Positions 35,822-52,475 are shown, counted from the first letter of the stretch. The stretch: 64,000 bases of DNA from Bacteroidales bacterium (GCA_050953245.1 JBMNMG010000002.1:266903-330902); one strand, 5' to 3'. A program made the numbers and translations. The notes: a model not told the origin generated them from the sequence alone.

Positions 35822-37222
35822 TTGAAAAATAAAAATATATTAGGTTATTTATTTACATTGGGGCTTTTTTTTATAATAATAAGCCCCAATTTTTTAACTG
35901 AAGGTATGTTTATGGACGGCATTAATTATGCTGCCGTTTCAAGAAATTTATCTAAAGGATTAGGTACATTTTGGAAACCGTATTATAATGAACTGACTCC
36001 TTTTTATTATGGCTGTCCTCCACTATGTTTCGGAATCCAAAGTTTGTTTTTTAGAGTTTTAGGTGATTCTTTTTATGTAGAAAAAATATTTTCAGTTGTA
36101 AATATTTTAGTTGTAATATTATTAATTGACAAAATATGGAAATTAATAAATAATAACACTAAAAAAGGTTGGATTCCTATTTTATTGTTTGTTTTAATAC
36201 CATTGTCAACGTGGGCTGCAACTAATAATATTTTAGAAAACTCAATGACTGTTTTTGTGTTGTTGGCATTATTATTTTATATTAAAAGCAACTCCGAAAA
36301 TAGGTTATTGAATTTGATATTTGTTTCGGTTAGTCTATTTTTAGGCTTTTTGAGTAAAGGATTTCCGGTATTTTTTATTTTAACCTATCCTTTATTAAAT
36401 TGGCTTTTTTTTAAACATCAATCATTTAAAAGAGTATTAACAGATTATGTATTAATTGTAATTTTTCTTACAATTATCTGTGGCATAACGGTATTAATTT
36501 TTGAAAATTCAATAATATGGTTTAAAAAATATTTTGAACATCAAGTATTATATAGTATCACATCATGGAAAACGGTAGATAGCAGATTTTATATTTTATA
36601 TAAATTCTTATCCAACTTATCATTACCTGTTGGGTTATTATTGTTAATTACTTTATTTAGTTTAATAAAAAATAAAGGTAAAATTAAAATTGCAGATAAA
36701 AATGTAAAGTTGTTTTTCTTGTTTTTTTCAACATCACTTACCGGAGTTTTTCCTTTAATGATAACACTTAAACAAAGTGTATTTTATTTACTTCCGGTAA
36801 TGCCGATTGTCGCAATTTCGTTCGCATTTCTTGCAGTTAATTTATTAGAAAACTTAAGTACATCTCATGCTTTTTATAAAATTAGTAATATTTTAATAAT
36901 AATAATTTGTTGCATAAGCATAGGTTTAAATATTTATTTTTGTGGAAAAACAACTCGAGATAAAAACTTGTTATCTGATATTCATAAGGTGGGAAATTAT
37001 GTTGGCAATAATAAGTCTATTTCAGTAAATAGTGAAATGATGACATATTGGAGTACAATTGCTTATTTTACAAGATATTATAATATTACCCTAATTAATT
37101 TTGAAAATATGCAACTAAAATATTTAATAGTAAATACTAATACTAAAACAAACACTTTAGATGCAAATTATTCAAAAATAGAATTAGATTTAAAAATGTT
37201 TGAAATTTATCAAAAACAATAG
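35822..37222 (+). CDS. Polytopic membrane glycosyltransferase, ArnT/PMT (GT39/GT83)-like
   Basis: About 12 predicted TM helices with N-terminal loop FMDGINYA resembling ArnT/PMT_2-family proteins; start uncertain (TTG at 35822). Confidence 0.4.
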   Translation: MKNKNILGYLFTLGLFFIIISPNFLTEGMFMDGINYAAVSRNLSKGLGTFWKPYYNELTPFYYGCPPLCFGIQSLFFRVLGDSFYVEKIFSVVNILVVILLIDKIWKLINNNTKKGWIPILLFVLIPLSTWAATNNILENSMTVFVLLALLFYIKSNSENRLLNLIFVSVSLFLGFLSKGFPVFFILTYPLLNWLFFKHQSFKRVLTDYVLIVIFLTIICGITVLIFENSIIWFKKYFEHQVLYSITSWKTVDSRFYILYKFLSNLSLPVGLLLLITLFSLIKNKGKIKIADKNVKLFFLFFSTSLTGVFPLMITLKQSVFYLLPVMPIVAISFAFLAVNLLENLSTSHAFYKISNILIIIICCISIGLNIYFCGKTTRDKNLLSDIHKVGNYVGNNKSISVNSEMMTYWSTIAYFTRYYNITLINFENMQLKYLIVNTNTKTNTLDANYSKIELDLKMFEIYQKQ

Positions 37223-38028: not shown

Positions 38029-38144
38029 GTTTAACCCTAAAATGTTTCTGAAAACCTCAATTTTTAGTCACCTAAACTATACTAATTGAGAAATTTCAAC
38101 CATTTTTTTGCATAATTTGTAAGAAAGTTAATTAATTCCTTAAC

Positions 38145-41100
38145 CTAATTAGTTTTAAGAAATTTATCATTCGAAATCGTTTTGTTGTCTTTAACAACAA
38201 TAAAATATAATCCTTCCTTAAAGTTGTTTACATCAATTGAAATTTTATTATCATCACAATTTATTGTTTTAACCAAAATCCCGTTTACGTTGTATATAGA
38301 AATATTTTTAATCTTATTATTGCTTTCTACATTGATAATGTTTTTTACAGGATTTGGATAAATAATAATTTCTGAATTAACAGATGTTTCTTTTACTGAA
38401 AGAATATTATCTAAAACAAGTGCAAAGTTTGGAATACCATAACCGTAATCAATATAATGGTCAGGATATTTACTTGATGTGGAATTAATAATTTGTTTTA
38501 ATTCTTTAGGCTTTAATGAATTATTTGCTTGAATTAAACAAGCTACCATTCCGCACGAAATAGGGCTTGAAAAGGAAGTTCCACTACCTTCTTCTATTTC
38601 ATTATTAGGTCTTAATACAGTAGAGTTTACACCTAAGGCACAATAATCAGGTTTTGGATAATTATTGCTATTATTTCCCAGTGAACTAAAACTTGCAATT
38701 TCGTTGTTAATATCAACAGCACCTATTGTTGCAGCTTCTTCAACATCAGCAGGAGTTCCTATTTGAGACCAATGCGAGCCATTGGAATTTCCGGCACTTA
38801 CACTTACATAAATTCCTCTTTCAGTTGCCATTTTGCAACCAATTGAAGAAGGACAAGTACTTCCGTCCATATCTGAAAATACATGATCCATTGAACTATC
38901 GTCAAAAGTGGAATAGCTTAAAGAAGAATTTATTATTTCCGAACCAATACTATCAGCTATTTCTGCACCTTTAACCCAATTGAATTCTTCAATAAGATAT
39001 TCTGAAAAAGCATCTTCAGTTCTTATTAAGATGTATGAAGCTTCAGGAGCTGTACCTACAAATTCATTCGGTAAATATGAAGCCATACAAGATAAAACAG
39101 AAGTCCCATGGCTATTTCCGGTAGGTGAATAAATATCTCCATATTTTTCAACTAAATCGCTTGTATAAATGATTTTGTTATTGTCAAATAAATGTTGCAA
39201 TCCGGTAAGTTGGTTAACATTATTAAAACCTGCATCTAATACTGTTATTATGATTCCATCACCTTTATATCCTGCATCGTGAACAGGAATACCGTTAATT
39301 TGATTAATTTGACCAAAACCTTGTCCATAAACAGATTTATTGTCAATATTATCTATTTGAGAATAATTAATTTTATCCCATTTGTTATTAAGACTTGTAT
39401 TATTAGACATTTCAGGACAAACATAAACAATACTGTCAATAAAGGTTAAGTTGTTGATACTTTCGATTAAACTATCATTTGCATAAACTACAACACAATT
39501 AAGCCATTTGCTTGCATAATTTACAATTGCGCTTGTATTTGCAATTTGATTAATATATTCCGGATTAACAGGTAAATCATCTGTAGTAATAGGAATGTTT
39601 AGCAATTGTCTTCTTGCAATAGCTCTTTCTGATAAATATTCAGAAGGATTATCAATGCTATACGGAGAATTGTTTTTATCCTTTAAGAATACGGCATATT
39701 GAGGAAATGACGGAATATCAGAAATTATTATACTCTCGCAAACTTCCATAGAAACACTGTTTTCGCAAACAGATTCTATACAGTAGTCATGTTGTCCCAT
39801 AGGAACACCAAAATCGGTAAATGTTGTATTTTCAGTATAACCTATAAAAATTAAATCTCGATAGATATTATATCCCAAAGGTGAATTTTCCGGTTCGTTC
39901 CATGATAAATTAACATTTGCGATAGAAGTATTTAATGTTAAATTTGTAACTTCACTACAAGCTTCATATGAGTTAATAATACAATTATTTATAAATGTAT
40001 AAAGCAACCCTGATTGAAGCATCGAAGGTGATGAATAAATAATATTTCCTGATGCGTCCTTTACTGTAAAAGAACATTCATCATCATAAGCTCCGGATAT
40101 CCATGTTAAACTTACTTCAATACCTGTTTCTACTTCAATGGCAAATTCCGCAAATGCTCCCGATTCTAAGGTTAATTCTTGTGAAGGTGCTCCATTACTA
40201 AATTCAACTTTTAATATTGCATCATTCCAACCATCACCGTAATCATCGGTAAAACTAAAAATAAGATCACAAGATTCTTTATATAAAAAATCGATTACAG
40301 TTTCAGTTCCAAGACCATCAGTTAATTTTAAAGTAAAAGGAATATTAATATTTTCAGTCGGGAATGATGACAATGATGTTATATCAAATAATGTCGATTT
40401 AATTTCATTAACTTCCATATTCCCAACTAAATCAGTGTTTGTATTTATTACAATATTGTTATCCGATGACTCTAATTCGGCTACAATATTATTTGCCGGG
40501 ATATTTCCATTATTCAGAATATTAATAATAAATATAAAGTTTTCGTTCGGATCTATTTTACCATCATCATTACCTTCTGAATCATCAATAACATAAGAGT
40601 CTAAAATAATTTCATAACCACTTATATCAGCGGTAAAGTAAATAATACAATCTCCGGAACTTAGTTGAACAGATCCTTTGAATAAAATACCTTCATTTAC
40701 CGGAATACCTTGCGATACGGAAAAAGAAAGTGCGTTATTGATGGTTACTGATTCATTACTATTTAAGTCAGGCAAACTTGCAACACTGTCTATTAATGTA
40801 ACATATTGATTATCTGTTGAAAAAACAATATCAGACATGATACTCATATTTACATCAGAAATATTTTTAAAAGTTAAATTTAATGAAACAGTTTCATTAG
40901 TATTAATTTGTCCATCATTATTGCCTTGGTTATCGTTTACAGTATAGCTTTCAACTTGCAATGGATTCAAACTTAATAATATTTCAAGTGCCTCATCATA
41001 ATCGGGGATACCGTAACCGTAAGTAGTACTATGGTTTGGATATCTATCACCTGTAGAATTTACAATTTGTAATAAATCCATAGGTTTAATTAAAGGATTT

Positions 41101-42374
41101 GCTTGAATTAAACAAGCAATCATGCCGGCAGTTATAGGACACGAAAAAGATGTACCATCGGCATATGAAATACTTCCTTCTGTACTAATTACAGTTGCAT
41201 CAATACCTCGTGCACAGATATCAGGTTTTGGATCTCCTGCACCGTTTGGTCCAATTGAACTAAAAAATGCTATCTCTCCAGCTGCATCTACTGCTCCAAC
41301 AGTGGCTACACTTACCACATCAGCTGGTGGACTTACCCAACGCCAATCATAAAGAATGAAGTTGGAATTACCTGCACTGCATGTAACAAAAATACCTTTT
41401 TCTGTAGCTAACTTAGCAGCTTTAGAACATGGAAGAGTTTCTCCATCTGATTGGTAGTATTCAAAATCCATTGATTCATCGTCAAAAGTGCTATATCCCA
41501 ATGATGTACTTATCAGATCACACCCTAAGCTATCGGCTGCTTCTGCACCAATAGCCCAATTATAAGGTTCAATTAAATATTCTTCGTTTGCATTTTCTGT
41601 TCTAATTAAAGCAAAAGCTGCTTCAGGAGCCGTACCAACAAACTCCCCAACTAAGTTAGTTGCAATACATGATAAAACATTAGTTCCATGGTTACTTGTA
41701 TTTGAATAAATGTTTCCTCCTTTAACTACAAAGTCCTTTTCAAAAACTATCCTATTTTCTTCATATAAGACATCAAAAGCAGGAATATTATTTAAATTGT
41801 CAAAACCTGCATCTATTACACCGATCAGAATTCCTTTTCCTCTAAACCCTTTATTATGAACAGGTATTCCGTTAATCTGGTTTATCTGCTCAAAACCATG
41901 ACCGTAATAATCGTTTTTACTTGTATTTTTATCTACCGGCTTAAAATTATTTTCGTTTTCGAGCTTATCCTTATGCTTACTTACAAAATTGGGATCTCTT
42001 GTTTCTTCATCTTTAGTATAATTCCCTGGGCTAATGTAAACTACACTCTCAACGTAAGGTAATTGCTGGATAGTATTAACAAGAGAAGAATTGCACGATA
42101 TTAATGCAACATTTAACCATTTTGATGTAAAACCAATAACAGCACCTACTTCGCTTAGCCCATTAACATATTCAGGATTTACAGGCAAATCCGTTTCATC
42201 TATAGGAATATTAAATTTTATTCTCCTTTCAATAGATCTTTGCGATAAAAATTCTTCAGGATTATTAATTGAATAAGGTGAATTGTTTTTATCTGTAAAA
42301 TGTACAGCATATTTTTGTCCTAACATACTGATGGACAAAAGAATAGATAATAAAAGCAAATAATATTTTCTCAT
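38145..42374 (-). CDS. T9SS-secreted protein with two complete subtilisin-like (S8) propeptide+catalytic modules
   Basis: Module 1 triad contexts VIDAGF / NHGTNVLSC / GTSFSCP; module 2 VLDAGF / SHGTSVLSC / GTSFSSP; both preceded by homologous pro-regions (YAVHFTDKNNSPYSINNPEEFLS vs YAVFLKDKNNSPYSIDNPSEYLS); C-terminal IYPNPVKN...LYFIVV CTD. Confidence 0.85.
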   Translation of the reverse strand: MRKYYLLLLSILLSISMLGQKYAVHFTDKNNSPYSINNPEEFLSQRSIERRIKFNIPIDETDLPVNPEYVNGLSEVGAVIGFTSKWLNVALISCNSSLVNTIQQLPYVESVVYISPGNYTKDEETRDPNFVSKHKDKLENENNFKPVDKNTSKNDYYGHGFEQINQINGIPVHNKGFRGKGILIGVIDAGFDNLNNIPAFDVLYEENRIVFEKDFVVKGGNIYSNTSNHGTNVLSCIATNLVGEFVGTAPEAAFALIRTENANEEYLIEPYNWAIGAEAADSLGCDLISTSLGYSTFDDESMDFEYYQSDGETLPCSKAAKLATEKGIFVTCSAGNSNFILYDWRWVSPPADVVSVATVGAVDAAGEIAFFSSIGPNGAGDPKPDICARGIDATVISTEGSISYADGTSFSCPITAGMIACLIQANPLIKPMDLLQIVNSTGDRYPNHSTTYGYGIPDYDEALEILLSLNPLQVESYTVNDNQGNNDGQINTNETVSLNLTFKNISDVNMSIMSDIVFSTDNQYVTLIDSVASLPDLNSNESVTINNALSFSVSQGIPVNEGILFKGSVQLSSGDCIIYFTADISGYEIILDSYVIDDSEGNDDGKIDPNENFIFIINILNNGNIPANNIVAELESSDNNIVINTNTDLVGNMEVNEIKSTLFDITSLSSFPTENINIPFTLKLTDGLGTETVIDFLYKESCDLIFSFTDDYGDGWNDAILKVEFSNGAPSQELTLESGAFAEFAIEVETGIEVSLTWISGAYDDECSFTVKDASGNIIYSSPSMLQSGLLYTFINNCIINSYEACSEVTNLTLNTSIANVNLSWNEPENSPLGYNIYRDLIFIGYTENTTFTDFGVPMGQHDYCIESVCENSVSMEVCESIIISDIPSFPQYAVFLKDKNNSPYSIDNPSEYLSERAIARRQLLNIPITTDDLPVNPEYINQIANTSAIVNYASKWLNCVVVYANDSLIESINNLTFIDSIVYVCPEMSNNTSLNNKWDKINYSQIDNIDNKSVYGQGFGQINQINGIPVHDAGYKGDGIIITVLDAGFNNVNQLTGLQHLFDNNKIIYTSDLVEKYGDIYSPTGNSHGTSVLSCMASYLPNEFVGTAPEASYILIRTEDAFSEYLIEEFNWVKGAEIADSIGSEIINSSLSYSTFDDSSMDHVFSDMDGSTCPSSIGCKMATERGIYVSVSAGNSNGSHWSQIGTPADVEEAATIGAVDINNEIASFSSLGNNSNNYPKPDYCALGVNSTVLRPNNEIEEGSGTSFSSPISCGMVACLIQANNSLKPKELKQIINSTSSKYPDHYIDYGYGIPNFALVLDNILSVKETSVNSEIIIYPNPVKNIINVESNNKIKNISIYNVNGILVKTINCDDNKISIDVNNFKEGLYFIVVKDNKTISNDKFLKTN

Positions 42375-42425
42375 ATCATTAAAATTAAGAAGTAAATAAA
42401 TAACGAAGATACATATTTTTATTAA

Positions 42426-43458
42426 TTAACGTGAGTTCGACTTAAGCAACTACTATTCTTTTTTCATCAATAATATCTTTATTGATGTTTATTGAAGGCT
42501 TTTTGTCGAAAAAAGAATACGCTGCCAAAGCAGATAACAGATTGATAATAAAGCTATCAAAACTTCTGTGACGTGTATGTTCAATCTGACAAATGTTCTT
42601 TAATTCATCATTTACTTATTCTATTAAAGCTCTTTTGCGAAGCATAATTCTATCATGTAAAAGCAAGAGAGCATTTTTCATATTTTTTCGTAGTTTGGTA
42701 ATTAAATGTACACCGTCAACAAAAAGTTGTTCAAACAAATTTTTACTGATATATCCTTTATCTCCAAAGAGTTTGCCAAAAATACGTTTATGCAAGTCCA
42801 TATTTTTCAGTGGTTCTCTGTCATCAACATTGCCGGGTGTAAGAATAAAATCTAAGATTTCGCCTTTGTCATTGATTATCAAATGAAGTTTGAATCCATA
42901 AAACCAACCCAAAGAACATTGTCCTTTTTGTGCTATATTTTTGAAAGTTTTGTGTTGTTTTTCTCTTTTTATGTGGCAACTACGAATAGGCGTAGAATCA
43001 ATAAAGGAGATTCCTGTACACTTACCTAGACACATCATTTTAACAAAGACAGCCAGCGGTACACATACTTTTCGCTGTAGTTCAACAAAACGATTATAGG
43101 AAACTGTTTGTGGAAAGTCTTTTTGCATATGCTTTTGGACGTAAAAGACATAAAAGCTTTTCAAGTTTTTGAACGATGCACTGTGAAACAAAATTAAGAT
43201 TGTCATTACTTCACTTTCTGACATTGTAAACTTGCGGTTTCTTTTCTTTGTTTGTTCACTTGGTAAGGAGTATTCTTTGATAGTTTTATCAAATTCTTTG
43301 AAAAACTCATCGATTATGAAATAAATTTCAGTAACTTTATGGTCTGGAATCATAGCAGAATTGTTAGTATATATTTGAAATTCAGAACTTTAAAATTACT
43401 GATTTTTCTGCTGGATTCCTAATATTTAAGCACTTTTCTTACATCGAACTCACGTTAA
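42426..43458 (-). mobile_element. IS982-family insertion sequence, copy A (transposase inactivated by a nonsense mutation)
   Basis: Terminal inverted repeats TTAACGTGAGTTCGAC ... ATCGAACTCACGTTAA; about 6 substitutions relative to copy B, no indels. Confidence 0.85.
42616..43353 (-). pseudogene. IS982-family DDE transposase truncated at codon 246 (TCA to TAA)
   Basis: Identical to the copy B protein for 245 aa; plus-strand T at 42617 versus G at 50527 creates a stop right after RALIE, removing the end of the R(3)E(6)K signature and 58 aa. Confidence 0.85.
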
Positions 43459-43651
43459 AGTACTCTTTATACTGCTCTCTGATAAATATTGTCCATGCCA
43501 CTATCCCAACAAGTAACGAACCGGTTGATGCCCACGCACCCCATTTCCAAGTTCCTACATAGCTAAAAACAAGCGGAAAAATATAGAGAAAAAAGAAACT
43601 AAGCCCTGTTTTATTATTCGTATTCATAATCTTCTCATTTTTAATAATCAA
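43439..43651 (-). CDS. Small (70 aa) two-TM membrane protein; C-terminus and stop codon come from the IS end
   Basis: Two hydrophobic helices; abuts the upstream gene (43652); the last five codons (NVSSM) and the stop lie in the IS inverted repeat. Confidence 0.4.
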   Translation of the reverse strand: MIIKNEKIMNTNNKTGLSFFFLYIFPLVFSYVGTWKWGAWASTGSLLVGIVAWTIFIREQYKEYFNVSSM

Positions 43652-44050
43652 TTAACGCATTTCAAATAGTGTCACATTGCCGTCTATATCTGCTTCAAAG
43701 CTATAGTCAGCACGAGCACCGCTTAAGCTCATATTCCAACTCTGCTTGTGAGGAAAGTAATAAAAGGTTGTACCGGACGGAAGTTCGGCGCCTTCAATGT
43801 CGACTAGTCGCTTTAAGCCCTCGGTAAAGACTTTATGTGCCGTTCGCAATTTAATAGAACTAAACGGATAAATTTTTTTATCTATATTTTCCATATCGCT
43901 TTTGCTCAACTTTTTGGGATCTTCTTTACGCCATTTATCGGTTTTGGTCTCATACCAATACCAATCTGCCTCACTCTTATTCTGTGGATTAATGGCAATT
44001 ACTCTTACCCTGTCGTCTTCTACGAAAATAGGTCCTGTAAAAAGCATCAC
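43652..44050 (-). CDS. Hypothetical protein, 132 aa, no recognisable family
   Basis: Uninterrupted ORF in a tightly packed same-strand four-gene array; composition matches the cargo. Confidence 0.5.
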   Translation of the reverse strand: MMLFTGPIFVEDDRVRVIAINPQNKSEADWYWYETKTDKWRKEDPKKLSKSDMENIDKKIYPFSSIKLRTAHKVFTEGLKRLVDIEGAELPSGTTFYYFPHKQSWNMSLSGARADYSFEADIDGNVTLFEMR

Positions 44051-44061
44051 TTCATCCGTTT

Positions 44062-44448
44062 TCAGAAATTGATAAAGTTCTTTCTGATTTCTTCAAGTTT
44101 ATCAGGTTGAAAAAGCAGGGAAATTTCCGTATTATTCCATTTTTCCATCTCCTTCTTCACCATATGCTCTACTGCTTCCATCTGTTTTTTATCAAATTCG
44201 CTACCGGATTCATCTACAACAGCACGAAACTCTTTTAGTGCCTCCTCAAGTGTTTTCTCTCTTTGCTTGCCGCTACTACCACTTAAAGAACCAGGACTGT
44301 TAAAAGCGTCTGACAATTCTTTCTGCCGATTTTCTTCATTGCCAAATGTTTCGCTGAAAGCATTTTTCACCTTATCGCATGAAGTGAAGAAAAGCATCCC
44401 TACAAATAAGGGTACTAACAAAAATTTCCTTTTCATATTCTTAATCAT
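44062..44448 (-). CDS. Hypothetical lipoprotein, 128 aa
   Basis: Lipobox LFFTSC after a basic/hydrophobic leader; charged helical remainder; ATGA overlap with the upstream gene. Confidence 0.55.
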   Translation of the reverse strand: MIKNMKRKFLLVPLFVGMLFFTSCDKVKNAFSETFGNEENRQKELSDAFNSPGSLSGSSGKQREKTLEEALKEFRAVVDESGSEFDKKQMEAVEHMVKKEMEKWNNTEISLLFQPDKLEEIRKNFINF

Positions 44449-44939
44449 TCCTTTATATCAATAATTATTGGATAAAAAGATGCCGTTAATGGTAAATATT
44501 TAATGGTGAGTCGCTCGCCATCGCTATAGTATTTAGTCATATGATGCTCCAACAACGACGCATCTTGATAGGTGCTGTCAGGGAGTTGAAACACAAAATA
44601 ATATCGGTCAATATGATGATAATTCAACATAATTCCGGAATATTCTGATTTGTACATAACTGCTTCAGTCGGTGTGCCGTAATGGTTCACAATAGCACGA
44701 ACTATTTTTCCGTTAACGAAGGAGTTAATTACAAACACTACGAATAGAGCAATTCCTAAAATCAACAGAGTTGCTGCAGTTTTGTCTTTAAACGACATGA
44801 TTTTCTTTTTGTCAAATTTAAATGTGCCACCCAATAGTCTTCTGAAAAGACCTATTACTAAAGCTAGTATAAGGACTAATACAATCACTCCCCAGCCCGA
44901 TTTTACAGTAAATGCTATTAAAGTTGCTATAAATTCCAT
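44445..44939 (-). CDS. Hypothetical membrane protein, 164 aa (two N-terminal TM helices plus a beta-rich C-terminal domain)
   Basis: TM segments at about aa 5-30 and 55-75; first gene of the minus-strand array, divergent from the DUF134 gene. Confidence 0.55.
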   Translation of the reverse strand: MEFIATLIAFTVKSGWGVIVLVLILALVIGLFRRLLGGTFKFDKKKIMSFKDKTAATLLILGIALFVVFVINSFVNGKIVRAIVNHYGTPTEAVMYKSEYSGIMLNYHHIDRYYFVFQLPDSTYQDASLLEHHMTKYYSDGERLTIKYLPLTASFYPIIIDIKE

Positions 44940-45047
44940 TATTATTATTTGTAATTGTTCTATATCATTTTACTTTTAACCCATAACATAAAATGAGAAT
45001 ACTTTGTTCATGGAGCAAATTTATTTAATAATTTTGTAACATTAAAT

Positions 45048-45059
45048 GAACATATGTTC
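45048..45059. promoter_or_regulatory. Perfect 12-bp palindrome GAACATATGTTC in the divergent control region (candidate operator)
   Basis: Lies 11 nt upstream of a TATATTTG -7-like box (45071-45078) and 45 nt upstream of the DUF134 start codon. Confidence 0.3.
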
Positions 45060-45104
45060 TAAACTTTTGTTATATTTGTACAGTAATTCAAAACCAAAAA
45101 CAGC

Positions 45105-45545
45105 ATGTCACGTCCAAAACAGTGTAGAAAAATTAAGTCACCGCCATTGATGTCGGGTTTTAAACCGTTTGGTATTCCACGTTCGATAACGGGAGGAGTA
45201 GTTTTGCAATACGATGAGTACGAGGCAATTCGATTGTTGGACTACGAAGGATTATTGCAGGAAGAGGCTGCCGAAAGGATGAATGTATCGCGTCCCACGC
45301 TTACACGAATTTATGCCAAAGCAAGAAAAGCGGTTGCCAAAGCATTTGTAGAAGGGAAATCGTTGGTGATTGAGGGCGGAAATGTAGAGTTTGGTGGAAA
45401 ATGGCATCGTTGTGGTCGATGCAATAGGGTTATGAATGGCAGACACAGGCACAATCAATATTGCGGAAATTGCAAAAAGCAAGAAATTGATGAGTCTGAA
45501 TTAACAAATAAAGATAATCAAAATGAGAATAGTAGTATTATCTGA
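45105..45545 (+). CDS. DUF134 (UPF0251) family putative DNA-binding protein with C-terminal CxxC...CxxC zinc-ribbon extension
   Basis: MSRPKQCRKI..P....FKP.G, EYEAIRLLDYEGLLQEEAAERMNVSRPTLTRIY (sigma70-r4-like HTH); tail CGRC...CGNC. Confidence 0.8.
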   Translation: MSRPKQCRKIKSPPLMSGFKPFGIPRSITGGVVLQYDEYEAIRLLDYEGLLQEEAAERMNVSRPTLTRIYAKARKAVAKAFVEGKSLVIEGGNVEFGGKWHRCGRCNRVMNGRHRHNQYCGNCKKQEIDESELTNKDNQNENSSII

Positions 45546-46353
45546 CAATAGGGCAAAATCATCGGATTTTGAAACCGAACATGGTTTATCTGTTTATCTT
45601 GAAACAGATAGCTATAACTGTTTGTTGGATGTGGGTGTATCGGACCTGTTTGCACGCAATGCCAAATTGATGAATATCGATTTAAGTGATGTGGACTATC
45701 TCTTTATCTCTCACGGACATGCCGACCATATTGGTGGATTACCTTCGTTTTTAGAGATAAACCAAAAAGCTAAAATCGTTGTCTCTTCGCGGATATTAAA
45801 TCGGGAGTATTACTCATCAAGAAACAGCATGAGAAAAATAAGCATCGATTTTGATTTTGATACGCTAAAAGAAAGACTGATTACTGTGGATGAAAAAGCA
45901 CAATTTGAAGAGGATATTGCTGTTTTTATCCCAAAAATCAAAAATCACCCGATGCCAAAAGCCAATCGTCTGCTTTTTAAAAATATCGGCGATGAATTGG
46001 TAAATGATGATTTTGATCACGAGGTAATTATTACTTTTGGGAAAGAGAGAAAGTTTGTCTTTACAGGATGCGGACATAGCGGTTTGCTGAATATTTTGGA
46101 AAGCGCAACAGCCGAACAAGCCGGACAAATAGCTGCCGTGATGGGTGGATTTCACCTGCTGGACAGTAGAAACGGAATGACGTTTGAAACTGAAAAAGAG
46201 ATAAAAGAATTGGGCGAAACTCTGAAAACTCGTTTTCCCGAAACTCTTTTTGTAACGGGACATTGTACGGGCGATACAACTTTTAATCAGTTGAAAAGCA
46301 TTTTGGGAGAGCAGATTACACAATTTTATGTTGGATATGAATTAAAAATTTAA
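45523..46353 (+). CDS. MBL-fold metallo-hydrolase
   Basis: HGHADHIGG (HxHxDH) motif, later GCGHSG and GGFHL; 23-nt overlap with the DUF134 gene. Confidence 0.8.
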   Translation: MRIVVLSDNRAKSSDFETEHGLSVYLETDSYNCLLDVGVSDLFARNAKLMNIDLSDVDYLFISHGHADHIGGLPSFLEINQKAKIVVSSRILNREYYSSRNSMRKISIDFDFDTLKERLITVDEKAQFEEDIAVFIPKIKNHPMPKANRLLFKNIGDELVNDDFDHEVIITFGKERKFVFTGCGHSGLLNILESATAEQAGQIAAVMGGFHLLDSRNGMTFETEKEIKELGETLKTRFPETLFVTGHCTGDTTFNQLKSILGEQITQFYVGYELKI

Positions 46354-46417
46354 CACGAAGAATTAATAGTAGGATAAAAAATAAGTCAGATATTTCACTT
46401 AATCTATTTATTAGTTA

Positions 46418-46539
46418 CCACGCCATTTATGGCGTGGATGATAAGAAAGTATCAAATGGGCTTTAGCCCAATAGTAAATAAATTTAGGCTAAAGCCTAAT
46501 AAAAATAAATCATTAATCTCCACGGCTTTAAAGCCGTGG
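46418..46539 (+). repeat. Array of four GC-rich palindromic hairpins in the MBL / NifX-like intergenic spacer
   Basis: CCACGCCATTTATGGCGTGG (46418-46437), GGGCTTTAGCCC (46458-46469), TTAGGCTAAAGCCTAA (46484-46499), CCACGGCTTTAAAGCCGTGG (46520-46539). Confidence 0.8.
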
Positions 46540-46594
46540 CAATTGATATTAGGAAAAAATATATTCAAAACGCATTAATATTTTAAATAATTAT

Positions 46595-46900
46595 ATGAAA
46601 ATCGCAATTGTATCAGAAAAAGAGAGTTTAGACGCACGAATTGATAGTCGTTTCGGGCGTTGTGCCTATTTTGCTATCTACGACACCGATAGCAAAACAA
46701 CAGAGTTTTTTCCAAATCCGGCGAAGGATTCACCCGAAGGAGCAGGTCCGGCAGCTGTGAAATTCGTCGCATCGAAAGGAGTAAAGAAGGTAGTGGCACC
46801 CGAATTTGGAGGAAAAGCGGAAACTATGCTAGAAAAGCTTCAAATCGAAATGGTTAGCGAGAAAGATAAAACTATTTCGGAAATTATTAGAGGTTTCTAG
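46595..46900 (+). CDS. NifB/NifX/NafY-family (dinitrogenase FeMo-cofactor-binding fold) small protein
   Basis: MKIAIVSE...RFGRCAYFAIYD, GAGPAAVKFVASKGVKKVVAPEFGGKA, the typical Nitro_FeMo-Co domain pattern. Confidence 0.8.
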   Translation: MKIAIVSEKESLDARIDSRFGRCAYFAIYDTDSKTTEFFPNPAKDSPEGAGPAAVKFVASKGVKKVVAPEFGGKAETMLEKLQIEMVSEKDKTISEIIRGF

Positions 46901-46955
46901 TAATTATAGGAAGATAGTGAAGTTTATTATTATGAACTAAAAGTTAGAAACAAAA

Positions 46956-47312
46956 ATGAAAGTACTTATTATTTTCAATCGTGAACCATATGACAACACA
47001 GATGTAACATGGAACGGGCTTAGGCTTGCAGATACTCTAAGAAACAAAGGACATGAAGTAAGGATTTTCCTTATGAATGATTCTGTTGATATGGCAAGAG
47101 ATGCTTGTAAAGCACCGGAAAATTATGATCAAGATTTATCGCAAATGCTTAAAGACTTAATTGCCAATGGTGTTTCGGTAAAAGTTTGTGGTACTTGTAT
47201 GGCTCGTTGCGGGATTTATAAAAACCATCCATATTTTGAAGGAGCAAATAAATCTACAATGGGTGAATTAGCAGAATGGGTAGTTGATAGCGACAAGGTT
47301 TTGACATTTTAA
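46956..47312 (+). CDS. DsrE/DsrF/TusD-like sulfur-relay fold protein
   Basis: MKVLIIFNREPY...ALRLA..L...GHEVRIFLMNDSV...GVSVKVCGTCMARCGI...DKVLTF matches the DsrE-family layout. Confidence 0.72.
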   Translation: MKVLIIFNREPYDNTDVTWNGLRLADTLRNKGHEVRIFLMNDSVDMARDACKAPENYDQDLSQMLKDLIANGVSVKVCGTCMARCGIYKNHPYFEGANKSTMGELAEWVVDSDKVLTF

Positions 47313-47418
47313 CAAAGTAAATAATCCTTTTATTTACAACTATTATTATAAGTGTTTCAAAATCAGCAACAAACTATAACGCTAAATATTATTTAAAAAG
47401 AATGTTTAATTAAAAAAA

Positions 47419-47462
47419 GGTATCTAATAAGCAACGTAGCAGCTGGATACTTATTAGATACC
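47419..47462. other. 13-bp perfect stem hairpin just upstream of the DUF5320 gene
   Basis: GGTATCTAATAAG (47419-47431) / CTTATTAGATACC (47450-47462), 18-nt loop; a U-tract exists only for the minus-strand reading (A7 at 47412-47418). Confidence 0.6.
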
Positions 47463-47486
47463 GCTAATAAAAAAGGAGAAATAATT

Positions 47487-47750
47487 ATGCCAAGATTTAA
47501 TCAACAAGGTCCCATGGGAGAAGGTCCAATGACAGGACGAAAAATGGGCAAATGCACCAATTACGGTGAAAACAATAGTTCTGCAGAAGAACAAGTAAAT
47601 GTAGGTAGAGGCGGAAGAGGCTTCGGTATGGGAAGATGTCGTCGTGGATTTCAAGACAACGATGGACTAAGTCAAGGTCGCGGTTTTGGACGTGGCAGAG
47701 GTCGCTCAGGTCAAGGACAAGGCAGAGGCAGAAGAGGTTTTTCAGACTAA
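47487..47750 (+). CDS. DUF5320-like protein with arginine-glycine (RGG/RG) rich C-terminal half
   Basis: N-terminal MPRFNQQGPMGEGPMTGRKMGKC matches the DUF5320 signature; C-terminal GRGGRGFGMGRCRRGF...GRGFGRGRGRSGQGQGRGRRGF; AGGAG-like motif 8 nt upstream. Confidence 0.65.
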   Translation: MPRFNQQGPMGEGPMTGRKMGKCTNYGENNSSAEEQVNVGRGGRGFGMGRCRRGFQDNDGLSQGRGFGRGRGRSGQGQGRGRRGFSD

Positions 47751-47759
47751 ATTTCAAAA

Positions 47760-48131
47760 ATGAAGAATATGACACAAAAAATTGCTATCCCGATGGAAAA
47801 CGGGCAACTATCTACTCATTTCGGACATTGCCAATATTTCGCGATTGTTGCAGTAGAGGACAAAAAAATTGTAGAGATAACAAAACAGATTCCACCTGAG
47901 CACAAACCCGGTGTATATCCGAGATGGGTTGCATCACTTGGTGTAACCGATGTTATCGCAGGCGGTATCGGTCAACGAGCTATTGACCTTTTCAACGAGC
48001 AGGGTATCAACGTATTTGTTGGTGCACCCGTAAAAAGCGAAGAGGAAATTGTAAATGAATTTTTAGCCGGAGAACTTTCTCTGAGCGCTAACTATTGTAA
48101 TCATGACGGGGATCACCATAGCCATTGCTAG
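47760..48131 (+). CDS. NifB/NifX-family small protein with Cys/His-rich C-terminal tail
   Basis: KIAIPMENGQLSTHFGHCQYFAIV, VIAGGIGQRAIDLF; tail CNHDGDHHSHC. Confidence 0.8.
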   Translation: MKNMTQKIAIPMENGQLSTHFGHCQYFAIVAVEDKKIVEITKQIPPEHKPGVYPRWVASLGVTDVIAGGIGQRAIDLFNEQGINVFVGAPVKSEEEIVNEFLAGELSLSANYCNHDGDHHSHC

Positions 48132-48984
48132 CGGCAAAGGCGGCACAGGTAAAACCTTTATTTCGACCAACCTATTCAACTCGCTGCGAGATAGCGGGTT
48201 GAATATGGCTTTGGTGGATTGCGACGCTGAGGCACCCAACGACAGGGAGTTTCTGCGAGAGGGAGTATTGCAAACTACGCAACCAGTTACTCAAAAAATT
48301 CCCGTTATCGACAAATCGAAATGCACTTACTGTGGAAAATGTGATGAATACTGCAACTTCAACGCTTTCTTTTTCCTAGAAGAACCACAAACTATCGAGG
48401 TGTTGGAAGAACTTTGTCACGGTTGCGGTGCTTGTTCCGTTGCCTGCGAATATGGAGCAATAACCGAGAAAGATGACCTTTTGGGAAAAATCAATCGATA
48501 TAAATTTCCAAACGGCAATGAGCTGATTGAAGGCAAAATGGAGGTCGGAGTTCATGTCTCGGTTCAGATAATTAAGGAATCGATTAAAGCAGCCGAAAAT
48601 TTCGATTTGGTATTGCTCGATTCGCCACCCGGAACAGGCTGTCCTTTTATTCAAACAGTTTACAAAGCCGATTATGTGGTATTAGTTACGGAGCCTACAC
48701 CTTTCGGACTTAGCGACTTAAAGCAATCGGTGGAGATTTTGAGAGAGATGAAAATTCCGTGCGGAGTTATTATCAATCGGGCAGATTTGGGAACCGATGA
48801 GGCTCTCAACTATCTGCAACAGGAAAATATTCCATTGCTTATGAGCGTGCCGTTTGACAGAGAAATTGCCGTTGCATACTCTAAAGGCGATATGATTACG
48901 AATTTGAGCAGCGAATGGCGTGAAAAATTCAATCAATTATACCGAAACATAAAAGAGGATTTTCAAAAAGTAAAGACAAAGTAA
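48103..48984 (+). CDS. MinD/ParA-superfamily P-loop ATPase with inserted 2x[4Fe-4S] ferredoxin domain
   Basis: Deviant Walker A IASGKGGTGKTF; CTYCGKCDEYC and CHGCGACSVAC cluster motifs; DSPPGTGCP switch region. Confidence 0.85.
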   Translation: MTGITIAIASGKGGTGKTFISTNLFNSLRDSGLNMALVDCDAEAPNDREFLREGVLQTTQPVTQKIPVIDKSKCTYCGKCDEYCNFNAFFFLEEPQTIEVLEELCHGCGACSVACEYGAITEKDDLLGKINRYKFPNGNELIEGKMEVGVHVSVQIIKESIKAAENFDLVLLDSPPGTGCPFIQTVYKADYVVLVTEPTPFGLSDLKQSVEILREMKIPCGVIINRADLGTDEALNYLQQENIPLLMSVPFDREIAVAYSKGDMITNLSSEWREKFNQLYRNIKEDFQKVKTK

Positions 48985-48986
48985 TT

Positions 48987-49856
48987 ATGGAATTAGCGAT
49001 AATCAGCGGAAAAGGCGGAACAGGAAAAAGCAGTATCAGCGCGGCATTTGCCACCCTTCAGAAAGAAGTAGTTTTGGCAGATTGCGATGTGGATGCGGCA
49101 AATCTCTACTTGCTTTTTAATCCCGTTTGTGATGAGGAACATGTTTTTGTTTCGGGACAAAAGGCAGTACTCGATAAAGATAAATGTATAGATTGTGGTA
49201 TTTGTGTGGATTACTGCCGTTTCGATGCCATTGAGGAGAATGAACAAGGAGTTTCTATCGTGGAAACACTTTGCGAAGGTTGTCTTTTGTGCGCTCGTGT
49301 TTGTCCGCAAGATGCCATTACCATTGAAGAGGAAGACAGAAGTCGCTACTATGCCGGACAATTTAAAAACGGCAAAATGGTCTATGGACGACTTGCTCCG
49401 GGTGAGGAAAACAGCGGTAAATTGGTCAGCAAAGTTCGTGAGAAAGCAAAAGAGATAGCAGAAAAGTCCGATATAGAACATATTATTATTGACGGACCGC
49501 CGGGAATCGGTTGTTCGGCAATCAGTGCCATAACTGGAGTTGATGCGGTACTTGTGGTAACAGAACCGTCCGTGTCAGGCGTTCACGATTTGAAACGTAC
49601 GCTACAACTTACCAAAAGTTTTAACCTGCCGACAAGCGTTTTGATAAATAAATACGATATAAATCGGGAAGTTTCGACTGAAATAGAAGCTTATTGCAAT
49701 GAAAACGGCATCGCTGTTATCGGCAAACTACCATTCGACCCGATTGTTGTGGAGGCTATGGTTAATTGCGCTTCAATTACCGACTATACTCCTGAGTCAG
49801 AGATAAGTAAACTGATAGAAAAAGCTTGTTCTACTATTTTTTCTACTACTCCTTAG
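48987..49856 (+). CDS. Second MinD/ParA-superfamily ATPase with inserted 2x[4Fe-4S] ferredoxin domain (paralog)
   Basis: ISGKGGTGKSS; CIDCGICVDYC and CEGCLLCARVC; DGPPGIGC. Confidence 0.85.
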   Translation: MELAIISGKGGTGKSSISAAFATLQKEVVLADCDVDAANLYLLFNPVCDEEHVFVSGQKAVLDKDKCIDCGICVDYCRFDAIEENEQGVSIVETLCEGCLLCARVCPQDAITIEEEDRSRYYAGQFKNGKMVYGRLAPGEENSGKLVSKVREKAKEIAEKSDIEHIIIDGPPGIGCSAISAITGVDAVLVVTEPSVSGVHDLKRTLQLTKSFNLPTSVLINKYDINREVSTEIEAYCNENGIAVIGKLPFDPIVVEAMVNCASITDYTPESEISKLIEKACSTIFSTTP

Positions 49857-50116
49857 TTACCCAAGGAGTGGTAGCTATGCCTTATCAGTAAACACTTAAG
49901 TGAAAAACTTAATAAAAACTTAATATCCTTTTTTTTATACTTTTAAGCAATACAACTACTTTTGTATCGGACTGGATTTTAGAAGTATGAAAAACAAAAC
50001 CACATTTTAGGATTTTTGTGTCTAACGCTTTTATATTGGTTGGGAAGTTTCTCAACTAATATTATTTAGTGTGCATAACTGATTAATATCTGGTAATCTA
50101 TACATTAAACAAAAAA

Positions 50117-50344
50117 ATGAAAAAACCAATTAGTGAAATGGAGTTAGCTGCGGATAAAAAAATCGAGATTATACTAATTGCAGGAATAGCTATTCTGACA
50201 GTAATATTAGTTGTGGGAGTTTTTGCTTATAGAAATTACGATATCCTAAATGAAAACTTCCCGGAAGTAAAAGGTTATAAATTCGGTTTTACCGAGGATA
50301 TTGTGAAGTTGAAAGATGGAACTGAAATTTATTATTTAACGTGA
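50117..50344 (+). CDS. Small single-TM ORF (75 aa) whose reading frame runs into IS copy B
   Basis: One TM helix (IEIILIAGIAILTVILVVGVFAY); the last codons and the TGA stop lie in the IS inverted repeat (TTAACGTGA). Confidence 0.35.
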   Translation: MKKPISEMELAADKKIEIILIAGIAILTVILVVGVFAYRNYDILNENFPEVKGYKFGFTEDIVKLKDGTEIYYLT

Positions 50345-51368
50345 GTTCGACCTAAGCAACTACTATTCTTTTTTCATCAATAATATCTTTATTGATGTTT
50401 ATTGAAGGCTTTTTGTCGAAAAAAGAATACGCTGCCAAAGCAGATAACAGATTGATAATAAAGTTATCAAAACTTCTGTGACGTGTATGTTCAATCTGAC
50501 AAATGTTCTTTAATTCATCATTTACTGATTCTATTAAAGCTCTTTTGCGAAGCATAATTCTATCATGTAAAAGCAAGAGAGCATTTTTCATATTTTTTCG
50601 TAGTTTGGTAATTAAATGTACACCGTCAACAAAAAGTTGTTCAAACAAATTTTTACTGATATATCCTTTATCTCCAAAGAGTTTGCCAAAAATACGTTTA
50701 TGCAAGTCCATATTTTTCAGTGGTTCTCTGTCATCAACATTGCCGGGTGTAAGAATAAAATCTAAGATTTCGCCTTTGTCATTGATTATCAAATGAAGTT
50801 TGAATCCATAAAACCAACCCAAAGAACATTGTCCTTTTTGTGCTATATTTTTGAAAGTTTTGTGTTGTTTTTCTCTTTTTATGTGGCAACTACGAATAGG
50901 CGTAGAATCAATAAAGGAGATTCCTGTACACTTACCTAGACACATCATTTTAACAAAGACAGCCAGCGGTACACATACTTTTCGCTGTAGTTCAACAAAA
51001 CGATTATAGGAAACTGTTTGTGGAAAGTCTTTTTGCATATGCTTTTGGACGTAAAAGACATAAAAGCTTTTCAAGTTCTTGAACGATGCACTGTGAAACA
51101 AAATTAAGATTGTCATTACTTCACTTTCGGACATTGTAAACTTGCGGTTTCTTTTCTTTGTTTGTTCACTTGGTAAGGAGTATTCTTTGATAGTTTTATC
51201 AAATTCTTTGAAAAACTCATCGATTATGAAATAAATTTCAGTAACTTTATGGTCTGGAATCATAGCAGAATTGTTAGTATATGTTTGAAATTCAGAACTT
51301 TAAAATTACTGATTTTTCTGCTGGATTCCTAATATTTAAGCACTTTTCTTACATCGAACTCACGTTAA
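50336..51368 (-). mobile_element. IS982-family insertion sequence, copy B (intact transposase)
   Basis: Same 1033-bp element and inverted repeats as copy A, offset exactly 7910 bp. Confidence 0.88.
50352..51263 (-). CDS. IS982-family DDE transposase (303 aa)
   Basis: DDE contexts FIDSTPI, GDKGY and RALIESVNDELK (R-3-E-6-K signature); size and element length (~1 kb) fit IS982. Confidence 0.88.
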   Translation of the reverse strand: MIPDHKVTEIYFIIDEFFKEFDKTIKEYSLPSEQTKKRNRKFTMSESEVMTILILFHSASFKNLKSFYVFYVQKHMQKDFPQTVSYNRFVELQRKVCVPLAVFVKMMCLGKCTGISFIDSTPIRSCHIKREKQHKTFKNIAQKGQCSLGWFYGFKLHLIINDKGEILDFILTPGNVDDREPLKNMDLHKRIFGKLFGDKGYISKNLFEQLFVDGVHLITKLRKNMKNALLLLHDRIMLRKRALIESVNDELKNICQIEHTRHRSFDNFIINLLSALAAYSFFDKKPSININKDIIDEKRIVVA

Positions 51369-51417
51369 TTAATTTTAAATATTGATTTCAAAAAATAAAA
51401 TTAATAAAATAATTGTG

Positions 51418-51450
51418 AAAAAAAGAGCTATCTATATTTTAGATAGCTCT
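51418..51450 (-). terminator. Rho-independent terminator of trpS
   Basis: Stem AGAGCTATCTA (51424-51434) / TAGATAGCTCT (51440-51450); T-run on the minus strand. Confidence 0.7.
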
Positions 51451-51476
51451 TAAAATATTTTAATTATCTAATTTTT

Positions 51477-52475
51477 TTAAAAAATAGGATTAATTCCAAT
51501 ATATTTACGTACTTCTTTCATAGTTGCATTAGCACTTTCACGAGCCTTTTCGGCACCTAACTTTGCAACTTCTGATAAGTATTTCTCATTGGAACGAATA
51601 TCTAAAATTTTAGTTCTTATAGGATCTATAAACTTGTTAACATCTTCAGCCAATTGTTTTTTCATATCACCGTATCTGATAGAACAATTATTCCATTTCT
51701 CATCAAAATATTCAACTGTATCCGGCGATGAAACGGCTTTCATTATTGTAAATAAATTTTCTATATAGTCCGGTTTTTCCTGATTTTGCATAGTAGGGCC
51801 ACTATCCGTAAGTGCCTTCATTATTTTCTTTTTCACTGCTTTTGGCTCATCAGATAAGTAAATACAATTATCTGCACCTTCAGATTTACCCATTTTACCA
51901 CTACCATCTAAACCGGGTATTTTTACAAGTTCGTTACCAAAGTTATATGCTGTGGGCAAATTAAATAACTCGCAGTTGTACATTCTATTAAACCTGGAAG
52001 CAAATGTACGAGTCATTTCTAAATGTTGTTCCTGATCTTTGCCTACAGGAACTTTATGAGCACGATGCAGTAATATATCTGCTGCCATTAAAGTAGGGTA
52101 GGTAAGTAAGCCTGCATTTAAATTATCAGGTTGCTTACGTGCCTTATCTTTAAACGAAGTACATCTTTCCAATTCCCCTAGATAAGCATTCATATTCAAA
52201 TACAGATATAACTCAATTACTTCTTTTACATCGCTTTGAACATAAATTGTAGATTTCTCAGGATCTATTCCGGCAGCTAAATATTCTGCTAATACTTGTT
52301 TTACATTTTCTTGTAAATGTTCAGCTAAAGGATGTGTAGTTAAGGAGTGTAAATCTGCTATAAAGAAATAACAATTATTGTTTTCTTGCATTTTTACAAA
52401 GTTCACAAGGGCACCCATATAATTGCCTAAATGTAAAGGTCCTGTGGGTCTAATTCCACTTAAAACTGTATCCAT
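51477..52475 (-). CDS. trpS: Tryptophanyl-tRNA synthetase
   Basis: 332 aa; SGIRPTGPLHLGNY (HIGH-type) and KMGKSEG (KMSKS-type) motifs. Confidence 0.92.
   Translation of the reverse strand: MDTVLSGIRPTGPLHLGNYMGALVNFVKMQENNNCYFFIADLHSLTTHPLAEHLQENVKQVLAEYLAAGIDPEKSTIYVQSDVKEVIELYLYLNMNAYLGELERCTSFKDKARKQPDNLNAGLLTYPTLMAADILLHRAHKVPVGKDQEQHLEMTRTFASRFNRMYNCELFNLPTAYNFGNELVKIPGLDGSGKMGKSEGADNCIYLSDEPKAVKKKIMKALTDSGPTMQNQEKPDYIENLFTIMKAVSSPDTVEYFDEKWNNCSIRYGDMKKQLAEDVNKFIDPIRTKILDIRSNEKYLSEVAKLGAEKARESANATMKEVRKYIGINPIF

Follow-up and report, generated by a model that had tools for sequence, protein, structure and literature searches.

Members of the IS982 family of insertion sequences (IS) are known mostly as single-copy promoters or gene disruptors. 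The family review (PMC7335449) gives lengths of 845-1282 bp, variable direct target repeats of 2-10 bp and a terminus consensus, AC(N)6T(N)5TT, with a conserved 5'-AC; no IS982 composite transposon was found in it, and the word "composite" is absent from its text. The compound transposons with which the present locus is best compared, Tn5, Tn9, Tn10 and those carrying chlorate-reduction genes (PMC3735179), have two copies of one IS around captured chromosomal genes, use their outer ends, are surrounded by one target duplication, and can have one degenerate IS while the other supplies the transposase. Here we describe a unit that appears to share these properties in a 64,000-nucleotide stretch of a Bacteroidales bacterium (GCA_050953245.1, JBMNMG010000002.1:266903-330902; hereafter the window, with positions counted from its first letter), where two IS982-family copies enclose a 6.9-kb G+C-rich cargo between trpS and the gene for a protease secreted by the type IX secretion system (T9SS). 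As in the chlorate-reduction transposons (PMC3735179), the cargo is a metabolic operon and not drug resistance; the locus differs from the classical compound transposons in its IS family, in its uncultured anaerobic Bacteroidales host and in being known from sequence alone. We consider that an IS982-based composite transposon moved here as one unit by its outer ends, with a probability of roughly 0.65.

The two IS982-family copies and their ends

Pairwise alignment of 42426-43458 with 50336-51368 showed two co-linear repeats in the same orientation, 1033 bp each, offset by 7910 bp and separated by exactly six substitutions (99.4% identity), in agreement with an earlier reading of the sequence, here called the original prediction, which had put the substitutions at about six by eye. 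The 15-mer TTAACGTGAGTTCGA was confined to the four IS ends, and none of 100 shuffled controls reached four matches. The 1033-bp limits, which include TTAA, were nevertheless rejected for the element itself and replaced by AC...GT, since in related elements the bases outside AC...GT vary and form cognate duplications. With its ends redefined, the element starts ACGTG and finishes CACGT, so that the repeats measure 1033 bp as predicted while the IS proper measures 1027 bp, the TTA or TAA beside every IS end being target DNA. The left copy, IS_L, occupies 42429..43455 (its ends set from the alignment, from relatives and from the 5'-AC rule of the family; PMC7335449), and the right copy, IS_R, occupies 50339..51365, both on the minus strand.

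IS_R retains an intact transposase open reading frame (ORF) of 303 aa (50352-51263, minus strand). Its product matched Pfam DDE_Tnp_1_3 (E=1e-72, 243 bits, cut-off 27) and the NCBIfam equivalog NF033520 transpos_IS982 (276.3 bits, cut-off 130), bearing out the predicted family. The DDE-domain profile models cover residues 110-280, and a motif R241-x3-E245-x6-K252 is legible in the translation. Judging from this sequence, the IS_R transposase is apparently functional, and an identical 303-aa protein occurs in metagenomes at other insertion sites. In IS_L, a TCA>TAA nonsense mutation at codon 246 (alignment column 218) leaves an ORF of 245 aa (42616..43353, minus strand). Because the stop lies directly past the Glu of the R-x3-E-x6-K signature, the IS_L transposase is very probably dead, and the ends of this copy are intact despite the mutation.

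The inverted repeat of the IS, ACGTGAGTTCGA, is perfect over 12 of 12 positions and matches at 16 of 18 overall. Both ends start ACGTGAGTT, which is a partial match to the family consensus, with AC present and T at position 9 and with TA, not TT, at positions 15-16. At 1027 bp, with a single 303-aa ORF between terminal inverted repeats, the IS has the size and structure of the IS982 family. It resembles IS1187 of Bacteroides fragilis (1028 bp, 7-bp direct repeat) and ISPrsp2 of Parabacteroides in its length of ~1.02-1.03 kb, single DDE transposase ORF, 5'-AC termini, inverted repeats and Bacteroidales host (PMC7335449). By published description, however, the transposases of these two elements are longer (326 and 324 aa, respectively, against 303 aa here), and the strict TA-NN-TA target form seen here is one for which we found no statement in that review. 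The best plasmid-borne relative in PLSDB, an IS982-family element on a plasmid of a Bacteroides finegoldii isolate, shares 58% protein identity. By the usual identity criteria the sequence therefore qualifies as a new, previously undescribed member of the family.

A scan of metagenome contigs with the terminal 14-mer returned relatives at 66-70% identity and short elements resembling miniature inverted-repeat transposable elements (MITEs) with the same termini, together with chance matches, and found no further copy of the IS. Given AC...GT ends, perfect 5-7-bp TA...TA repeats flank 8 of the 12 single elements that were tabulated (for example TATTGTA, TAATTA, TATTTA, TACTTA, TAATA and TAAATA). 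These twelve are made up of 11 related IS or MITE-like elements, 7 of them with a duplication, and a single copy of the same IS on contig L007, flanked by the 7-bp duplication TAGTTTA. The B. finegoldii plasmid element, with a 6-bp duplication (TAAATA), brings the total to 9 of 13, and it is because these duplications fix the ends that the IS was placed at AC...GT. The MITE-like elements, ~170-250 bp long with ACGTGAGTTCGA termini, were seen in unrelated metagenomes (L145, L157, L161, L179 and L183), and four of these five have 5-6-bp TA...TA duplications. They have the appearance of MITEs derived from this branch of IS982; the word "MITE" is absent from the family review (PMC7335449).

With the ends so placed, a perfect 6-bp repeat encloses the entire unit, TAATTA at 42423..42428 and again at 51366..51371, in the TA-NN-TA form typical of the IS group. 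Neither copy has a duplication of its own: IS_L by itself lies between TAATTA and TAAAGT (3/6), and IS_R between TATTTA and TAATTA (5/6). The original prediction of a 4-8 bp direct repeat shared by the outer ends, with inner ends lacking a full match, is thereby refined to 6 bp, and its caution about TTAA was justified, as TA...TA at the ends reflects the target preference of the group. Since the IS prefers TA-NN-TA targets, only the two central bases of the repeat are informative. As a control, a perfect match was found in 11 of 132 non-cognate flank pairs (8%) against 8 of 12 cognate pairs (67%), a likelihood ratio of ~8. The outer duplication thus lends the composite transposon no more than moderate support, as the original prediction had suspected.

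The cargo and its donor-type counterpart

The DNA between the IS copies is foreign to the host. Its G+C content is 37.7% against 29.5% in the rest of the window, where equal-sized background windows reach at most 33.3% (0 of 207 are as high as the cargo). G+C at third codon positions (GC3) is ~0.35 in the cargo against ~0.20 in the background, with values of 0.24-0.45 in ten cargo ORFs against 0.196±0.043 in 39 background ORFs (Mann-Whitney p=2e-6), and the tetranucleotide distance to the host profile is 0.0295, compared with 0.0108±0.0022 (maximum 0.0167) for background windows, a departure of ~8 standard deviations. The hand counts of 55%, 47% and 38% G+C on which the original prediction had relied were recomputed as 0.55, 0.47 and 0.38, and the sliding G+C and tetranucleotide analyses that it had proposed set the cargo clearly apart from the host.

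A protein search with one of the cargo ATPases led to a 3.68-Mb contig of GCA_040767765.1 that encodes a homologue with 96% identity. The locus there, L231, holds the same cluster without an IS982 element, in a larger native chromosomal context of ~35-36% G+C, and in the order 164-aa protein, DUF134, MBL-fold, NifX-like, DsrE-like, DUF5320, NifX-like and two MinD/4Fe-4S ATPases. Nucleotide identity to L231 is 91.5% over 43455-46353 and 93% over 46587-50094, and the tetranucleotide profile of the cargo is near that of the L231 flanks (0.0121). Homology begins at the inner end of IS_L, where the gene for a 317-aa membrane protein of L231 is interrupted at codon 57. The first 57 codons remain (43457..43627, minus strand), and their 57 aa agree at every position with residues 1-57 of the L231 protein (100% identity); the rest of the gene is missing from the window, and host-type DNA lies directly beyond the other side of IS_L. 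The intact site in L231 reads GACT-TAAAGTA-CTC, a typical target for this IS. Moreover, similar clusters occur in other Bacteroidales in ordinary chromosomal settings. We infer that the cargo was taken from the chromosome of a gut-type Bacteroidales of ~36% G+C. The G+C-rich foreign cargo that had been predicted is thus borne out both by composition and by an IS-free cluster in another genome.

At the right end, L231 homology ceases at 50094, and nothing comparable to the last 241 bp of the cargo (50095-50335) was found either in L231 or in the proteins searched. This end (50095..50338, plus strand) contains an orphan 75-aa ORF (50117-50344) that extends into IS_R and has no L231 homologue; in the protein collection only the ORF itself was matched, and no full-length version of it. 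All IS-bounded copies of the cargo, from more than 10 metagenomic samples, are ~100% identical to the window, a point in favour of recency, which together with L231 answers the proposal to look for the cargo elsewhere with and without its IS flanks. A search of the plasmid collection returned no nucleotide match to the transposon and identified no vector.

Arrival of the unit and competing explanations

The locus is a real composite transposon, to judge by its structure, its IS family, its foreign cargo, the truncated donor gene, the outer duplication and recombinant flanks described below. We propose that two direct IS copies inserted around the chromosomal cluster of a ~36% G+C Bacteroidales, one of them within the 317-aa membrane-protein gene. 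The DDE transposase would then have acted on the two ends that face away from the cargo, that of IS_R being the transposase-proximal one and that of IS_L the distal one. Because the copies are in direct orientation, these ends form a properly inverted pair of left and right inverted repeats (IRL and IRR). In this way the whole 8.9-kb unit would have moved into a Bacteroidales host of ~30% G+C, where a staggered cut of 6 bp would have opened TAATTA within the 165 bp that separate the trpS terminator from the beginning of the gene for a T9SS-secreted S8 protease. Later, the left copy would have lost its transposase by nonsense mutation and kept its ends, and because those ends are intact the unit could still be moved in trans by IS_R. 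The claim that the whole 8.9-kb unit is one composite transposon therefore holds for its structure, foreign cargo and outer duplication; its arrival in a single transposition step is the history that we favour as probable.

Subsequent spread between related lineages would have proceeded by homologous recombination in flanking core genes, with no further transposition. A sister lineage, with 83-88% nucleotide identity in neighbouring core genes, provides the relevant contigs. On L256, 2 kb of unrelated DNA separates the lineage's own trpS from syntenic outer-membrane protein (OMP) and C69-peptidase genes, with no IS, cargo, protease, spacer or a1 flank. Contigs L259 and L260 are the same as L256 up to the trpS 3' end and from there 100% identical to the spacer and IS of the window (~0.1 kb of flank), and in L011 and L013 the switch occurs already at the trpS 5' end, so that identity with the window covers 1.1 kb of flank as well as the IS. 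Because these two breakpoints beside the IS are different, the sequences indicate that homologous recombination in flanking genes, and not transposition, brought the IS into the sister lineage on at least two occasions. The sister-lineage contigs end within the IS, and presumably the material behind it entered as well. That identical cargo would have been imported repeatedly hints that the operon may be selectively useful.

The lineages differ in what lies between trpS and the OMP gene (window 38035-42374 and 35906-37222 compared with L256:7836-9816). In the sister lineage, two small ORFs stand in place of the 1409-aa S8 protease, and a 438-aa PMT_2-like gene is also lacking.

The observations that the original prediction had named as refuting it did not turn up: no relative was found with IS-free cargo at this locus, the composition of the cargo differs strongly from that of the host, and neither IS copy has a duplication of its own. 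Several points do weigh against arrival in one step. The predicted empty site is ATAACGAAGATACATATTTTTAT-TAATTA-ATTTTAAATATTGATTTC, and a scan of metagenome contigs for the pattern AGATACATATTTTTA-N0-14-TTTTAAATATTGATTT gave 0 matches, so that the exact empty site suggested as a check was not found there. Following trpS synteny through GTDB, the best relative has 80% protein identity and is syntenic on the rng-trpS side, and its downstream side contains neither protease nor cargo; following the protease, the closest homologue that is not identical has 50% identity and lies in an unrelated context. The right inner junction is traceable to no donor, and the duplication test is weak, as 8% of non-cognate flank pairs are also perfect. 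No second, independently duplicated site of the unit was established, the contigs that join cargo to a further context (b3) being ambiguous. Finally, the outer duplication and a contig with a solo IS at this site are also expected under a different history, which is set out next.

Short-read contigs join all combinations of flanks (a1 or a2 with b1, b2 or b3) around the IS, six or more in number. The trpS side is joined to the right end of the cargo (L003, with the pattern of single-nucleotide polymorphisms, SNPs, of the R copy), to the protease side through a solo IS at this site (L250, from a strain that is slightly diverged, with ~3x coverage), and to b3 (L247). The left end of the cargo is joined to the protease side (L005, L244), to the right end of the cargo through one IS (L006, L105/L243, L242), and to b3 (L001, L004, L239, L245). 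SNP patterns within the IS are mosaic across samples. These contigs were taken neither as proof nor as disproof of a circle, a solo IS or a second site: assemblers traversing a 1-kb repeat yield just such combinations and mosaics.

The b3 context, a GmrSD-type gene and its neighbours, lies outside the window and implies one or more additional IS copies, either in this genome or in one that co-occurs with it; no matching target duplication was found for b3 in L001, L004, L239 or L245. There (L239:3650-3890, and also in L004, L009, L245 and L247) the third IS copy adjoins a G+C-rich segment of ~150 bp, CACCTAACGGTTTGCCGCTTTGCG..., which is structured-looking, varies between samples at seemingly paired positions and is absent from the window. 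L009 holds a diverged second version of this segment, suggesting a repeated element. A JGI contig runs, at L003:2720-3242, from the cargo into part of the RNase G gene in reverse orientation and on into window 26539-26775, and is probably a chimeric assembly.

The explanation that survives best beside one-step arrival is a history in two steps, which we regard as rather unlikely. Here a solo IS would have inserted at TAATTA and made the duplication, and an IS-plus-cargo circle would later have integrated into this resident IS. The circle might resemble a translocatable unit or might derive from a copy on a plasmid or an integrative and conjugative element, and integration might be RecA-dependent or transposase-targeted. 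Such a history leads to the same IS-cargo-IS structure and outer duplication, and L250, with trpS flank, one IS and protease flank, has the form of its intermediate. It would also account for the contigs L006, L105/L243 and L242, which link the cargo ends via one IS as a circle or tandem would (the L242 record, at 7940 bp, is 7910 + 30), and for the SNP mosaics of the IS copies across samples. However, every flank combination occurs in short-read assemblies, as expected when a 1-kb repeat is traversed at random, so that such contigs are no proof of real molecules, and L250 has a coverage of only ~3x. In addition, no translocatable-unit mechanism is known for IS982-family DDE transposases; the family review (PMC7335449) does not use the word "composite", and a search for translocatable units was not made.

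A more specific proposal, and an unlikely one, is that the 7910-bp IS-plus-cargo exists as a free circle or tandem one-IS translocatable unit that integrates beside a resident IS in the manner of IS26. The one-IS contigs that join the cargo ends do resemble the circle junction of IS26 translocatable units (PMC5024762), whereas the IS belongs to another family with another transposase chemistry, and the junctions are explainable by assembly traversal. If true, a translocatable unit would explain the solo IS of L250, the contigs that run from cargo end to cargo end in several samples and the link between cargo and b3, and it would mean IS26-like behaviour in the unrelated IS982 family.

Very unlikely is a misjoin in the assembly, by which at least three IS copies would be present, the cargo would reside elsewhere, for example in the GmrSD-containing b3 context, and the trpS-protease spacer would hold only a solo IS. 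Contigs that run from the cargo left end through the IS into b3 are present in at least four assemblies, including the 11.9-kb L239 with the nonsense allele of IS_L, and L247 and L250 link the trpS flank to b3 and to the protease flank, respectively. The window, however, lies within a contig of 751,824 bp on which MinD1, the transposase and trpS carry consecutive protein accessions, which argues against a misjoin. Each junction of the window is also backed by independent contigs (L003; L005 and L244), and six SNPs distinguish the two IS copies.

Two unrelated IS insertions around native host DNA, with nothing imported, would draw on the preference of IS982-type elements for AT-rich TA-NN-TA sites, which abound in the intergenic DNA of this genome, but this explanation is effectively refuted, because a donor-type cluster, the truncated gene and similar chromosomal clusters elsewhere exclude it: the cargo lies ~8 standard deviations from the host in composition and matches another genome, the remainder of the gene truncated by IS_L is absent with host-type DNA directly beyond, no duplication is specific to either copy, and the whole segment is missing from the sister lineage.

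Cargo genes, insertion site and significance

Next to the membrane-protein remnant, the cargo begins with a split lipoprotein pseudogene (43652..44448, minus strand), whose ORFs of 132 and 128 aa match the halves of a 261/265-aa protein of L231/L232 (89-92% by blastp). Since this gene is intact in the donor-type genomes L231 and L232, its split state indicates partial decay of the cargo after capture. It is followed by a 164-aa membrane protein (44445..44939, minus strand), 98% identical to its L231 homologue and without a Pfam or NCBIfam match. The remaining genes are on the plus strand, and the first two encode a putative DNA-binding regulator of the DUF134 family (45105..45545; Pfam PF02001, E=3.5e-25) and an MBL-fold metallo-hydrolase (45523..46353; Pfam Lactamase_B, E=1e-12). 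Downstream lie a small NifX/ORP-like protein with a Nitro_FeMo-Co domain (46595..46900; Pfam E=3e-19, with PDB matches that include 2wfb, a Desulfovibrio orange protein), a DsrE/TusD-like protein (46956..47312; Pfam PF02635, E=1e-21) and a DUF5320 protein (47487..47750; Pfam PF17253, E=5e-12). A second NifX-like protein (47760..48131; Pfam Nitro_FeMo-Co, E=2e-18) is like the Di-Nase domain of MrpORP, matching positions 263-365 of the NCBIfam model with E=2e-34; the best score of the cargo against MrpORP is 119 bits, and all scores are below the equivalog cut-off of 450. Two paralogous MinD/ParA-type P-loop ATPases (48103-48984 and 48987-49856; Pfam ParA/CbiA and Fer4), with a 2x[4Fe-4S] ferredoxin domain inserted in each, complete the set.

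Between the MBL-fold and the first NifX-like genes, a gap in the L231 alignment marks a 233-bp hairpin-rich intergenic insert (46354..46586, plus strand). It contains three or four strong hairpins (fold z = -7.06), was seen inside cargo copies only, and has no Rfam match; across 42000-52000, Rfam returned a single sub-threshold match to a plant miRNA, which was taken as chance. The insert may be a REP- or MITE-like element or a regulatory RNA. In one metagenomic copy of the cargo (L104:625-3507), the insert is part of a 1486-bp tandem duplication together with the NifX-like, DsrE and DUF5320 genes, which could be real or an effect of assembly.

These genes recall the ORP complex of Desulfovibrio vulgaris, which comprises Orp3, Orp4, Orp5, Orp8 and Orp9/MrpORP, the last a fusion of Mrp and Di-Nase domains, and has been associated with Fe-S maturation and perhaps also with cell division (PMC6345978). 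Orp3 and Orp4 are MinD-like with two 4Fe-4S motifs each (PMC6345978), as are the paralogous ATPases of the cargo, and the small NifX-like/Di-Nase proteins can be compared with Orp8 and the C-terminal domain of Orp9. The cargo differs in having stand-alone Di-Nase/NifX-like proteins only, with no Mrp/NBP35-Di-Nase fusion, and in its additional DUF134, MBL-fold and DsrE-like genes. Pfam scans also showed no sigma-54 activator gene in the cargo, whereas the Desulfovibrio orp operons are divergent and sigma-54-dependent and have a cognate enhancer-binding regulator. We therefore call the cargo ORP-like and not a member of the ORP clusters, since the fusion protein is lacking. Presumably it handles Fe-S or Mo-containing clusters in anaerobes.

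The flanking genes were confirmed by domain search as those originally predicted: on one side trpS, with RNase G, SSB and GldD behind it, and on the other an S8 subtilase whose C-terminus carries a T9SS sorting domain. A Flavobacteriales host, which GldD and the T9SS might suggest, was rejected, because the relatives of trpS and the annotation of the source point to Bacteroidales. Among species representatives, the nearest to the host by trpS are rumen and gut metagenome-assembled genomes of Bacteroidales, at 80% protein identity. The trpS intrinsic terminator, which belongs to the host flank (51423..51451, minus strand; a 12-bp stem and T tail, with 0 expected in shuffles), lies 57 bp from the outer end of IS_R. 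On the opposite side, 51 bp separate the outer end of IS_L from the start codon of the protease (48 bp from the last base of the duplication), a 1409-aa protein with host-like codon composition (GC3 0.18). Across window 42375-42428, the IS transposase gene reads toward the nearby protease gene. IS982-family elements reportedly affect the expression of genes at their target sites (PMC7335449). Inspection by eye of this interval, for which no test was run, showed no obvious Bacteroidetes-type promoter motif.

Elsewhere in the window (23666-25274), a DUF6088/AbiEi-like gene and an AbiEii nucleotidyltransferase toxin gene, with GC3 of 0.33-0.36 against ~0.20, are the sole background ORFs with cargo-like GC3. 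They probably constitute another horizontally acquired module, a type IV toxin-antitoxin/abortive-infection pair.

In summary, a new IS and a new composite transposon are described, both of known kinds and with no new mechanism, and the current understanding of transposition is unchanged. The unit adds an IS982-family example to the compound transposons, and the ends and the TA-NN-TA target form are now defined for the Bacteroidales branch of IS982, including its short MITE-like derivatives. The locus also documents the capture of an anaerobe-specific, ORP-like metallocluster operon from one Bacteroidales chromosome into a far more AT-rich relative.

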